Source: Escherichia coli (GTDB lineage Bacteria > Pseudomonadota > Gammaproteobacteria > Enterobacterales > Enterobacteriaceae). From it: a stretch of DNA of 64,000 bases. The notes beneath the pieces were generated by a model. It was not told the origin of the DNA, searched no databases, and worked only from the letters and a program-made list of their open reading frames with translations. The stretch lies in assembly GCF_003334385.1 (NCBI RefSeq), contig NZ_QOWN01000011.1. One strand, written 5' to 3'. Positions 2,371 through 50,845 of this stretch are shown here, piece by piece (position 1 is the first letter of the stretch; each line of letters starts with the position of its first letter). A program made the position numbers and the translations under genes.

Positions 2371-2495
2371 GGGTCAAAACCTCTTCTTTGTTCTTTGTGC
2401 CGCACACGACGACGCAAATGCCATTCTCAGGCGCAAGCCGCTTACAGCGTTGTGCCGCCCTGGATAAGTATAGCGGCACAGTTGCGCCTCTGGCA

Positions 2496-3119
2496 TCAAT
2501 TACGATGGGTCAGAATCGAATCGACCAGACCGTATTCCACCGCTTCAGGGGCGGAAAGGAAGCGATCGCGCTCGGTATCACGTTCAATCTGTTCTAATGA
2601 TTGACCCGTATGAAGCGCCATAAGTTCATTCATGCGCCCTTTAACTTTCAGAATTTCACGGGCATGAATTTCGATATCGGTCGCCTGGCCCTGGTAGCCG
2701 CCCAACGGTTGGTGAATCATCACGCGCGAATTCGGCAGGCAAAAACGTTTACCTTTTGCCCCTGCGGTCAGCAAGAAAGCGCCCATCGAGGCCGCCTGGC
2801 CCATACAGATGGTGCTGACATCAGGCTTGATAAACTGCATGGTGTCATAGATAGACATCCCGGCAGTGATCACCCCGCCTGGGGAGTTAATGTACAGATA
2901 GATATCTTTTTCTGGGTTTTCCGCTTCCAGGAACAGCATCTGCGCCACAATCAGGTTAGCCATGTGGTCTTCAACCTGGCCAGTCAGAAAAATGACGCGT
3001 TCCTTAAGTAGACGAGAATAGATATCAAAAGAGCGCTCACCGCGTGAGGTCTGTTCAATGACCATCGGCACCAGCGCCATATGGGGTGCAAAGTTATCTC
3101 GTTCGCCGCTGTATGACAT
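2496..3119 (-). CDS. clpP: ClpP serine protease subunit
   Basis: 207-aa [23 protein letters not shown]...; upstream of clpX on the same strand. Confidence 0.97.
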
Positions 3120-3297
3120 TTCCGTCTCCTGGATAAAATTGAAAAAACCTGCTGTACCGATTGTAACCTTATGGACGGATTATCAGCTAGTCCCTGTGTT
3201 ATGGGTACGGCATCACCATATTTCAAGCATAACAATCTTTTGTTGTTACGCTAACACCGAAAGAGGCTTTTCGCACGGTTCCATGCAAAATTCATGA

Positions 3298-3330
3298 CAA
3301 AAAAAAGCCCACCACCTGGCGGTGACGGGC
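3298..3330 (-). terminator. Rho-independent terminator after tig
   Basis: Minus-strand RNA GCCCGUCACC/GGUGGUGGGC 10-bp stem followed by a run of 8-9 U, directly after the tig stop. Confidence 0.6.
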
Positions 3331-3364
3331 CTTTGTGCGAATTTAGCGCGTTATGCTGCGTAAA

Positions 3365-14509: not shown

Positions 14510-14596
14510 GCCTGCTGCGCTACGCTTATCAGGCCTACAAAGTTTCTGAATTACAAACCTTTGTAGGCCGAATCAGGCGTTCATGCCGCATCTGAC
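14510..14596. repeat. Pair of REP elements in inverted orientation (BIME-like)
   Basis: GCCTGCTGCGCTACGCTTATCAGGCCTAC and GTAGGCCGAATCAGGCGTTCATGCCGCATCTGACA between convergent yajR and yajQ. Confidence 0.7.
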
Positions 14597-47314: not shown

Positions 47315-48499
47315 ATGAAAAAAGTCATTTTATCTTTGGCTCTGGGCACGTTTGGTTTGGGGATGGCCGAATTTGGCATTATGGGCGTGCTCACGGAGCT
47401 GGCGCATAACGTAGGAATTTCGATTCCTGCCGCCGGGCATATGATCTCGTATTATGCACTGGGGGTGGTGGTCGGTGCGCCAATCATCACACTCTTTTCC
47501 AGCCGCTACTCACTCAAACATATCTTGTTGTTTCTGGTGGCGTTGTGCGTCATTGGCAACGCCATGTTCACGCTCTCTTCGTCTTACCTGATGCTCGCCA
47601 TTGGTCGGCTGGTATCCGGCTTTCCGCATGGCGCATTTTTTGGCGTCGGAGCGATCGTGTTATCAAAAATTATCAAACCCGGAAAAGTCACCGCCGCCGT
47701 GGCGGGGATGGTTTCCGGGATGACAGTCGCCAATTTGCTGGGCATTCCGCTGGGAACGTATTTAAGTCAGGAATTTAGCTGGCGTTACACCTTTTTATTG
47801 ATCGCTGTTTTTAATATTGCGGTGATGGCATCGGTCTATTTTTGGGTGCCAGATATTCGCGACGAGGCGAAAGGAAATCTGCGCGAACAATTTCACTTTT
47901 TGCGCAGCCCGGCCCCGTGGTTAATTTTCGCCGCCACGATGTTTGGCAACGCAGGTGTGTTTGCCTGGTTCAGCTACGTAAAGCCATACATGATGTTTAT
48001 TTCCGGTTTTTCGGAAACGGCGATGACCTTTATTATGATGTTAGTTGGGCTAGGGATGGTGCTGGGAAATATGCTAAGTGGCAGGATTTCAGGACGTTAT
48101 TCACCACTGCGCATTGCAGCAGTGACTGACTTTATAATTGTACTGGCACTGCTGATGCTCTTTTTCTGCGGCGGCATGAAAACAACGTCGCTTATTTTTG
48201 CTTTTATTTGTTGCGCGGGATTATTTGCCCTTTCAGCACCGCTACAAATATTGTTACTACAAAACGCCAAAGGCGGAGAGTTATTAGGTGCCGCAGGTGG
48301 GCAAATAGCGTTTAACCTCGGTAGCGCCGTCGGCGCATATTGCGGAGGTATGATGCTGACGCTGGGGCTGGCATATAATTACGTGGCGCTGCCTGCCGCC
48401 CTGCTTTCGTTTGCTGCGATGTCGTCGTTGCTGCTGTATGGTCGCTATAAGCGCCAGCAAGCGGCGGATACTCCGGTGCTGGCGAAACCACTGGGGTAG
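47315..48499 (+). CDS. araJ: MFS transporter AraJ
   Basis: 394-aa protein starting MKKVILSLALGTFGLGMAEFGIMGVL; internal start within the supplied ORF 47231..48499. Confidence 0.92.
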   Translation: MKKVILSLALGTFGLGMAEFGIMGVLTELAHNVGISIPAAGHMISYYALGVVVGAPIITLFSSRYSLKHILLFLVALCVIGNAMFTLSSSYLMLAIGRLVSGFPHGAFFGVGAIVLSKIIKPGKVTAAVAGMVSGMTVANLLGIPLGTYLSQEFSWRYTFLLIAVFNIAVMASVYFWVPDIRDEAKGNLREQFHFLRSPAPWLIFAATMFGNAGVFAWFSYVKPYMMFISGFSETAMTFIMMLVGLGMVLGNMLSGRISGRYSPLRIAAVTDFIIVLALLMLFFCGGMKTTSLIFAFICCAGLFALSAPLQILLLQNAKGGELLGAAGGQIAFNLGSAVGAYCGGMMLTLGLAYNYVALPAALLSFAAMSSLLLYGRYKRQQAADTPVLAKPLG

Positions 48500-48514
48500 G
48501 TTATAGTCTCGGTG

Positions 48515-48722
48515 CTCATTACTTATTGCCGGATGCGGCGTGAACGCCTTATCCGCCCTACGCGGTTCTGGCACATTTTGCAGGCCTGATAAGACGCGGC
48601 AAGCGTCGCATCAGGCATCGGAGCACTTATTGCCGGATGCGGCGTGAACGCCTTATCCGGCCTACGGTTCTGGCACCTTTTGTAGGCCTGATAAGACGCG
48701 GCAAGCGTCGCATCAGGCATGA
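48515..48722. repeat. Tandemly duplicated BIME: two ~100-bp units, each with two REPs in opposite orientation
   Basis: Unit ...CTTATTGCCGGATGCGGCGTGAACGCCTTATCCGGCCTAC...GTAGGCCTGATAAGACGCGGCAAGCGTCGCATCAGGCAT occurs twice in tandem with a few mismatches. Confidence 0.8.
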
Positions 48723-48743
48723 TGCGCCAATTGCCTACGTTTT

Positions 48744-49652
48744 TTACTCTTGTGGCCATAACCACGCAGCGCCGCGTACGCCGCTGGAATCACCGTGCTT
48801 CGCCTTACGCACCGGCGTTTCACATTCGCCGCCGAAGACAAATTGTTTAATCAACTGCCCAACCGTTTGATATAAACGGTCTACATTGCTCATCCCGCCC
48901 CCCAGGACAATCACATCCGGATCGAGAATATTCACGACATGTGCCAGCGATTTTGCCAGCCGCAGCTCGTAGCGACGCAATGCCAGTTCCGCTACCGGAT
49001 CGCTTTCTTCAACCAGGCGGATAATTTCACTGCCTTTCAGCGCATGTCCGCTCAAACGACGATAATCCATCGCGAATCCCGTGCCCGAAATAAAGGTTTC
49101 AATACAACCTTGTTTACCGCAATAACAAGGGACTTCCTCGCGATAACGCAGTTCGTCTTCGTCCATCCACGGTAGCGGATTGTGTCCCCACTCACCTGCC
49201 GTGCCATTGCCGCCGATATGCGCCCGCCCATTGAATGCCACGCCCGCGCCGCATCCCGTGCCGATAATCACGGCAAATACCGTCTGCGCTCCCGCTGCCG
49301 CGCCATCTACTGCTTCTGAAACCGCCAGACAGTTAGCGTCATTTGCCAGCCGCACTTCCCGCTGCAACCTCGCGCTTAAGTCTTTATCGAATGGCTGACC
49401 GTTGAGCCAGGTTGAATTGGCATTCTTCACCACACCGGTGTAAGGCGAAATTGAGCCAGGAATGCCCATACCTACCGTTCCGCGCTGCCCCGTCGCCTGC
49501 TCCGCCATATCAACCAACGTGGCGATCGTTTCAATAGTCTGCCGGTAATCATCACGCGGCGTGGGCAGACGATGGCGGTACAACTGCTCCCCTGCATCGC
49601 CCAGTGCAATCACTTCAGTTTTGGTGCCGCCTAAATCGATACCTATACGCAC
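48744..49652 (-). CDS. mak: Manno(fructo)kinase, ROK family
   Basis: 302-aa protein; GTG start at 49652 ([14 protein letters not shown]...) preceded by SD AAGGAG; the supplied ORF extends 46 codons upstream. Confidence 0.92.
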
Positions 49653-49776
49653 GGTACTCTCCTTATTTTTTTCAATATCAATAGCGTAGAGACGGACAAC
49701 CGGATTGGCAATGCAAGGCCGCCGACAATTCGTTATCATGCCCGCTAAATTTAACGACAAGGCCGTGGAAATTATC

Positions 49777-50688
49777 ATGCTGTGGTTCAAAAATTTAATG
49801 GTTTACCGTCTTAGCCGCGAGATTTCGCTGCGTGCAGAAGAGATGGAAAAACAGCTAGCCTCGATGGCATTTACCCCATGCGGCAGCCAGGACATGGCGA
49901 AGATGGGCTGGGTTCCTCCGATGGGATCGCACAGCGATGCGTTAACGCACGTTGCCAATGGTCAAATTGTTATCTGCGCGCGCAAAGAAGAAAAAATCCT
50001 CCCGTCTCCGGTGATTAAACAGGCGCTGGAAGCGAAAATCGCCAAACTGGAAGCGGAACAGGCGCGTAAGCTGAAGAAAACCGAAAAAGATTCGCTGAAA
50101 GACGAAGTGCTGCACTCTCTGCTGCCGCGTGCTTTCAGCCGTTTTAGCCAGACAATGATGTGGATCGACACGGTTAACGGTTTGATTATGGTGGACTGCG
50201 CCAGTGCCAAAAAAGCGGAAGATACGCTGGCATTACTGCGTAAAAGCCTGGGGTCGTTACCGGTTGTACCATTGAGCATGGAAAACCCGATTGAACTGAC
50301 GCTGACCGAATGGGTTCGCTCCGGTAGTGCGGCACAGGGCTTCCAGCTGCTTGATGAAGCCGAGCTGAAATCGTTGCTGGAAGATGGCGGCGTGATCCGC
50401 GCGAAGAAACAAGATCTGACCAGCGAAGAGATCACCAATCACATTGAAGCCGGAAAAGTGGTGACTAAACTGGCGCTCGACTGGCAGCAGCGCATTCAGT
50501 TTGTGATGTGCGACGATGGTTCGCTCAAGCGTCTGAAGTTCTGCGACGAGCTGCGCGATCAAAACGAAGATATCGACCGTGAAGATTTCGCCCAGCGTTT
50601 TGATGCCGATTTCATCCTGATGACTGGTGAACTGGCAGCGTTAATTCAAAACCTGATTGAAGGATTAGGTGGCGAAGCACAACGTTAA
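49777..50688 (+). CDS. rdgC: Recombination-associated protein RdgC
   Basis: 303-aa protein starting [16 protein letters not shown]; internal start within the supplied ORF 49705..50688. Confidence 0.94.
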
Positions 50689-50705: not shown

Positions 50706-50743
50706 ATGCCGGATGCGACGCCTGCCGCGTCTTATCCGGCGTA
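50706..50743. repeat. REP element downstream of rdgC
   Basis: ATGCCGGATGCGACGCCTGCCGCGTCTTATCCGGCGTAC. Confidence 0.6.
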
Positions 50744-50845
50744 CGAAGCCACACCAGGCATATAATTATTCGCTACGGCGAGCAATAATTTGTAGCGCAG
50801 CAATATTATGCGTTTTACGCTGTAACTTGCTCCATGGACGTTGTG

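Follow-up and report, generated by a model that had tools for sequence, protein, structure and literature searches.

BIME-2 elements are defined by palindromic units of the z2 and y types, a short S linker, flanks of the s, l or r type and multiple tandem copies; within a locus the tandem copies resemble one another closely, and strains differ in how many they have (PMC3333891). BIME-1 elements combine z1 and y in a single copy, and their long L linker frequently includes an IHF site (PMC3333891). Cleavage and recombination of BIMEs by TnpA(REP) in vitro has been proposed as a route by which copy number changes, and palindromic units are also the target of the insertion sequence IS1397 (PMC3333891). 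Gyrase cleavage sites are enriched in BIME-2 elements, with the loops of y-type REPs favoured (PMC6379681).

REPs sit at the 3’ ends of genes, about 60% of them between convergent genes, where they correlate with higher expression of both neighbours and where approximately 40% coincide with mapped bidirectional terminators (bioRxiv 10.64898/2026.03.23.713779). According to the same study, REP325 terminates transcription in a partly Rho-dependent manner and stabilises mRNA, and the effects of REPs have a large locus-to-locus variance with no general effect on half-life (bioRxiv 10.64898/2026.03.23.713779). Here we describe a two-unit REP array between the Escherichia coli genes araJ and mak, compare it with these systems and consider how old its two-unit state is.

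Genomic setting and anatomy of the repeat

The DNA analysed is a stretch of 64,000 nucleotides from E. coli, referred to below as the window. Its araJ-mak region is 100% identical to E. coli K-12 MG1655 and to other K-12 assemblies over an 801-bp query. The MFS transporter gene araJ occupies 47315-48499 on the plus strand (RefSeq annotation of the identical sequence, with the open reading frame likewise ending at 48499), its TAG stop codon being 48497-48499. The fructokinase gene mak occupies 48744-49652 on the minus strand (RefSeq annotation; open reading frame 48744-49790), with its stop at 48744-48746. Both genes are annotated in NC_000913.3 and in more than 5,400 RefSeq genomes; they are convergent, and a gap of 244 bp (48500-48743) lies between their stops. 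The RefSeq annotation of the two flanks bears out the placement of the repeat between araJ and mak in an earlier note made from the sequence of the window.

Tandem Repeats Finder reported an array at 48521-48720 with a period of 102, 1.9 copies, 94% matches, 2% indels and a score of 363, which is the sole tandem repeat scoring 60 or more in the entire window. An exact-seed repeat search resolved two in-register direct-repeat blocks, one of 42 nt (98% identical, spacing 104) and one of 56 nt (96% identical, spacing 102), and the difference in spacing implies a 2-bp indel between the units. Each unit consists of a Y palindromic unit on the plus strand, a short S linker and a Z2 palindromic unit on the minus strand, with the CTAC/GTAG heads facing one another across the linker.

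The Y of unit 1 (48528-48561, plus strand) has one mismatch to the consensus, CCGCCC for CCGGCC, and is followed by a locus-specific, head-to-head S linker of 18 nt (GCGGTTCTGGCACATTTT, 48562-48579, plus strand) and by a Z2 (48580-48616, minus strand) that also has one mismatch, its head being GCAGG and not GTAGG. An s-type, tail-to-tail linker of 15 nt (ATCGGAGCACTTATT, 48617-48631, plus strand) leads from unit 1 to unit 2, where the Y (48632-48665, plus strand) and the Z2 (48682-48718, minus strand) match the consensus without mismatch and enclose an S linker of 16 nt (GGTTCTGGCACCTTTT, 48666-48681, plus strand). The Z2 units at araJ-mak contain the 15-nt Z2-type centre GACGCTTGCCGCGTC, and the Y and Z2 consensus sequences used in these comparisons are those of the literature. 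To the left of unit 1, the motif CGGTGCTCATTACTTATT (48510-48527, plus strand) is paralogous to the inter-unit s linker (CGGAGCAC-TTATT), as judged by direct reading and from other alleles, and is probably a degenerate s-type BIME-2 flank. The first REP stem begins 28 nt downstream of the araJ stop, and the Z2 of unit 2 ends 25 nt from the mak stop.

Aligned from the first to the last palindromic unit, the two units are identical at 84 of 89 positions (94.4%) and differ by three substitutions and one 2-bp indel (CTACGCGG versus CTACGG); the linker motif adds a further substitution and a 5-bp indel. The units are truly homologous, the locus-specific S linker included. The repeat had been described in the earlier note as two tandem units of about 100 bp, each with two opposed REPs, and as having only two units and no spacers. 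Both descriptions hold: there are four palindromic units with at most one mismatch each, and the units abut through the 15-nt linker. The concern that the locus might be an assembly artefact is dispelled by the presence of a 45-mer spanning the unit-unit junction in 1,381 independent complete genomes.

Folded singly, three of the four palindromic units reach approximately -21 kcal/mol on either strand, the Z2 hairpin of unit 1 among them (-21.3 to -21.8 kcal/mol, either strand). The G-to-C change at the stem base of the unit-1 Y (CCGCCC) gives -14.7 as against -21.3 kcal/mol, a loss of about 6 kcal/mol. RNA folds of the whole region produced long-range pairing between the Y1 and Y2 arms; this is an equivalence artefact of the repeated sequence, and single-unit folds were used instead.

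Assignment to the BIME-2 family

Because every sequence feature of BIME-2 is present at araJ-mak, namely Y and Z2 palindromic units, alternating orientation, an S linker, an s linker and a variable number of tandem copies, we assign the element with high confidence to this family, as a canonical K-12 BIME-2 in which an s linker connects two tandem Y-S-Z2 modules. It has in common with other members the Y/Z2 alternation, the S and s linkers, modules of about 100 bp and an extragenic position at gene 3’ ends, as well as a module number that varies between strains and its use as a target by IS1397. A single published gyrase cleavage site, which maps to a Y loop, would be a further point in common. 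It differs from them in nothing essential, its particulars being the two modules, the weakened Y of module 1 and an S linker of its own.

Like BIME-1/RIP/RIB elements, araJ-mak has an inverted REP pair at a gene 3’ end, but those elements have Z1, a single copy and a long L linker with an IHF site, whereas araJ-mak has Z2, two copies and S linkers of 16-18 nt. A consensus scan for the IHF motif WATCAANNNNTTR found no match in 48500-48743 and five matches elsewhere in the window. BIME-1 identity, and with it IHF binding, was accordingly considered and rejected for this element (Z2 and not Z1, a short linker, two copies, no IHF match). Of the two protein partners named in the earlier note, IHF thus falls away, being a trait of the BIME-1 L linker for which the consensus is missing here, and gyrase stands as the appropriate candidate, with an entry for this locus in a published table. 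The araJ-mak module is likewise an inverted REP doublet of the kind proposed to be mobilised or recombined in REPINs by RAYT, or TnpA(REP), proteins, although the araJ-mak locus is without involvement of a RAYT gene.

Two direct repeats of approximately 100 bp with internal palindromes have a superficial likeness to a minimal CRISPR-like, or otherwise spaced, repeat array, a reading that the earlier note had already discounted. It is ruled out by the anatomy: unique spacers are absent, only a 15-nt linker of the family type stands between the units, and the repeats themselves are Y/Z2 REPs, which occur in tens per genome (33-39 places).

The resemblance of the two units has to be read against that of the family as a whole. 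The araJ-mak units are 87.6-90.8% identical to the modules of the unrelated REP325 array, while REP325 modules are 98.9-100% identical to each other. Since about 90% identity is found even between unrelated BIME-2 modules, most of the near-identity of the araJ-mak units is family resemblance. Their relationship as local paralogues follows from the locus-specific S linker that both units carry, GGTTCTGGCAC(A/C)TTTT, where REP325 has GGAGGGTGCGGGAATTT, and is further supported because the junction 45-mer occurs at one place per genome.

Comparison with REP325 and the naRNA4 model

REP325 has the same module architecture and the same period of approximately 100 bp as araJ-mak. It differs in having six modules (12 palindromic units) against two, in lying between tandem and not convergent genes, in the identity of its modules (99-100% against 94%) and in the sequences of its S and s linkers. 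Its s linker, GTCGGCACCGTT, nevertheless resembles the araJ-mak linker ATCGGAGCACTTATT.

The Rfam model naRNA4 (RF02564) corresponds to the Z2-linker-Y segment of REP325, which is the yjdM-yjdN BIME-2. It matches the araJ-mak element at 48583-48662 on the minus strand with 79.8 bits, against a gathering score of 59.5. The match covers the Z2 of unit 1, the s linker and the Y of unit 2 and exists because the two units abut; the one-unit and B2 alleles described below score under the gathering score. A match above that score agrees with assignment to BIME-2.

The match also raises the idea that araJ-mak is a source of naRNA4-class RNA, in which a Z2-Y two-hairpin transcript together with HU would bridge cruciform DNA and compact the chromosome. 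The original paper reports that most REPs are transcribed and proposes this role for REP325 (mBio 2015, PMC4550694). We consider it very improbable that araJ-mak acts in this way. The model was built on REP sequence, so that any abutting Z2-s-Y pair should match it, and the lower scores of the one-unit and B2 alleles indicate that such a role would not be conserved at the locus. The HU/naRNA compaction model has moreover been contested by a group that includes the senior author of the original paper (bioRxiv 10.64898/2026.03.23.713779), and for that reason we give it little weight.

Gyrase cleavage

Table DS3 of a Topo-Seq study contains the entry ‘BIMEs2 410303-410493, 190 bp, 1 Cfx GCS’ (PMC6379681). 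The coordinates of that study are of the W3110 type and not those of MG1655 v3. With a coordinate offset of 775 bp the entry corresponds exactly to 48528-48718 of the window, and this mapping is validated because a second REP in the window, at 50707-50744 on the plus strand, fits the same offset and coincides with the DS3 entry 408277-408313. The araJ-mak BIME-2 is already known and catalogued, and it is ordinary.

Within the element one cleavage site was recorded with ciprofloxacin, and none with rifampicin plus Cfx, microcin B17 or oxolinic acid (PMC6379681). araJ-mak appears to be a weak gyrase site, with one site in one of four conditions. The ciprofloxacin site maps to the loop of the unit-2 Y, at approximately 48645-48646; this single published cut falls in the consensus Y of module 2, not in the weakened Y of module 1.

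Besides the REP at 50707-50744, two further REP-like palindromic units were seen in the window. One, at 28730-28764 (plus strand), corresponds to the DS3 entry 430193-430290 (97 bp), whose partner unit beside 28764 was missed by our search pattern; the other is at 14563-14596 (minus strand).

Variation among strains

Alleles were counted over 5,426 complete E. coli genomes, the K-12 allele by means of the 45-mer junction query, which is unique in a genome. This junction was found in 1,381 of the 5,426 (25.5%), once in each except for one genome with two, and was at least 99% identical in 1,375. A diverged two-unit allele of the B2 type, with a gap of 268 bp between the genes, is present at 95% identity or more in approximately 1,055 genomes (19%); it has a 44-nt linker, a Z1-like palindromic unit in unit 1 and nine substitutions between its units. 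One-unit alleles, with gaps of 142 or 139 bp, make up about 55% of genomes by subtraction, a share consistent with the 22 one-unit chromosomes among 39 in an even-step sample. Three units were found in a single genome of the 5,426, E. coli PigCaeca_1 (NZ_CP039298.1), as an exact match to a synthetic query of unit 1 followed by two copies of unit 2. The suggestion that copy number at this locus varies between strains is thus substantiated, with one, two or three units present in the set.

In PigCaeca_1 the three-module gap is 346 bp (L005, 501-846) and the flanks are identical to K-12; this is a single record, for which an assembly error is possible. The two-unit strain E. coli NCTC9104 (L006) has an araJ that is annotated as frameshifted (a pseudogene) and a different stop-proximal codon (CTGGAGTAG). 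The CCGCCC change of the unit-1 Y is kept in single-unit alleles of the O157/O8H8/UMB200201/MEI7BO1/B1.H1.18/CUPS04 type and is absent from AH50, MS69-1 and E1V33.

Some genomes have an IS1397-family insertion in the BIME. In E. coli YL03 (NZ_CP093548.1; L004, about 2397-3360) an IS3-like element of the IS1397 family, with a partial transposase annotated, lies in a one-unit araJ-mak BIME. The insertion is in the Z2 loop (GACGCG / IS / GCAAGCGTC) and constitutes a natural example of the targeting of palindromic units by IS1397.

The same gene end has had other histories in related species. Escherichia sp. MOD1-EC7003 (L023, 8316-8361) has a perfect 7-bp microsatellite, ATGCCTG/CATCAGG, of 6.6 copies, which grew from the Z2 tail of the one-unit BIME of that species. 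In Citrobacter koseri NCTC10786 (L020, 1-289) an 82-bp REP-pair module of Citrobacter type, repeated in tandem at least 3.5 times (94% matches), adjoins the mak stop and forms an independent, species-specific BIME array, which may extend beyond the start of this locus. In Escherichia albertii NBRC 107761 (L015, upstream of 8494, mak-oriented) araJ is absent, and the sbcC stop is followed by about 140 bp with one REP-like hairpin and then by mak.

Age and origin of the two-unit allele

In the earlier note the near-identity of the units had been taken as a sign of recent duplication. This does not hold at the level of strains: the allele is present at 99% identity or more in 1,375 genomes and its units are only 94% alike. 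The reading is also opposed by unit 2, which is without two derived states of unit 1 (CCGCCC and an extra GC in the S linker) that are common to the neighbouring one-unit alleles.

The most direct view of change in unit number comes from three alleles on one haplotype. K-12 (two units), PigCaeca_1 (three) and CUPS04 (one) have no differences in 960 bp of coding flank, and the sole unit of CUPS04 is identical to unit 1 of K-12. Conversion of a CUPS04-like allele to that of K-12 would need four changes, all of them in unit 2 and none elsewhere; the opposite step is a single event, in which exchange between the Z2 segments, identical over approximately 40 bp, removes one module. Because loss takes one event and gain takes four changes in unit 2, the two-unit state is the older on the K-12 haplotype, and the one-unit allele of CUPS04 and the three-unit allele of PigCaeca_1 are recent derivatives. 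Whole modules may be gained and lost by recombination or by replication slippage between the direct repeats of about 100 bp, and RecA-dependent or slippage events would explain the exact duplication of unit 2 and the loss of a module as well as TnpA(REP) would.

How the K-12 haplotype itself came to have two units is a separate matter. A neighbour-joining tree built from the flanks places the K-12 clade within a set of one-unit lineages (O8H8, O157, MEI7BO1), and for this reason plain parsimony would favour a gain on the branch to K-12. On this account a one-unit allele resembling that of O157 or O8H8 would have doubled on the K-12-like branch, after which the copies diverged slightly. The K-12 units are in keeping with such an origin in being three or four substitutions apart and nine to eleven from the B2 units, and the likeness between the left flank (CGGTGC...TTATTGCC) and the junction (CGGAGCAC-TTATTGCC) is what a duplicated segment beginning in the flank would leave. 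We nevertheless regard a lineage-specific duplication as rather unlikely. It needs about six changes in approximately 210 bp, against about five changes in the 960-bp flank on the same branch. Neither CCGCCC nor the extra GC, both present in all neighbouring one-unit alleles, occurs in unit 2, whose sequence is nearer to that of the sole unit in the outgroup Escherichia sp. E1V33. The B2 allele has the same junction octamer, CGGAGCAC, and E. whittamii has CTGAGCAC in its place, which suggests that the junction is old, and its conservation in the 1,375 genomes places any such duplication beyond the recent history of single strains.

The E. whittamii locus (L021), whose flanks are about 9% diverged, points to a greater age. 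It has a decayed two-unit BIME in an araJ-mak gap of 169 bp, from which the 3’ half of Y1 and most of the second Z unit have been deleted, and it has in common with the E. coli B2 alleles a Z1-like unit (ACACGCCAGTGT), a Y2 variant (GCGCGAGCGCC) and the junction motif. These shared features show that a two-module BIME was already at the araJ-mak locus before E. coli speciated.

The K-12 allele may descend from that element: a two-unit BIME older than the split between E. coli and E. whittamii would have been retained in K-12 types and homogenised there, while most lineages collapsed to one unit. Gene conversion, or cycles of contraction and re-expansion, would have made the K-12 modules alike. 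Besides the decayed E. whittamii element, the octamer common to K-12 and B2 fits this history, as do the contraction and expansion directly observed on an identical haplotype. Weighing on the other side, many independent losses are required on the flank tree, and the palindromic units of K-12 differ from those of B2 and E. whittamii (the Z of unit 1 is Z2 and not Z1-like, and Y2 is another variant). The sole link of K-12 to B2 and E. whittamii is accordingly the 8-nt junction, and the s motif found throughout the family, which in REP325 reads GTCGGCAC, is likewise similar to the linker. We therefore hold descent of the K-12 allele from the ancient element only tentatively, at slightly less than an even chance.

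Possible role at the 3’ ends of araJ and mak

No intrinsic terminator-like site was found on either strand in 48300-48950, where none of the four stems is directly followed by a T-run, and a consensus scan found no promoter in the araJ-mak intergenic region. Transcripts of both strands are predicted to form stable hairpins, of approximately -21 kcal/mol each, 25-28 nt past the convergent stops. The element could in this way block 3’-to-5’ exonucleases and partly terminate read-through without being an intrinsic terminator. Most likely, on the present analysis, the araJ-mak element acts as a bidirectional 3’-end element, a role that fits the distance of 25-28 nt between each stop codon and the first hairpin of its transcript. 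Just as plausibly, the element may be selfish, nearly neutral DNA belonging to the REP/RAYT system.

We also considered whether the number of modules might itself be functionally meaningful, with the old two-module state, dating from before the split of E. coli and E. whittamii, persisting in some lineages on that account. This appears very improbable to us. If it were true, it would be two modules, and not one, that provide the Z2-s-Y double hairpin of the naRNA4 class and a consensus Y gyrase site, and strains would differ in the processing of araJ and mak 3’ ends or in the local handling of supercoils, a natural ‘REP dial’.

Significance

That strains differ in their number of BIME-2 modules has been on record since the 1990s. 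The araJ-mak repeat has little discovery value in itself, as it is not a novel array and IHF is the wrong partner for a BIME-2. For the family it carries a caution about the reading of such arrays: unrelated BIME-2 modules being about 90% alike, near-identical units in a REP array cannot be read as a recent duplication. The allele counts (1,381, approximately 1,055 and 1 of 5,426 genomes), together with the series of one, two and three units on the same haplotype, make the locus a clean small example of expansion and contraction, and its module number could serve as a typing marker or as a teaching case.
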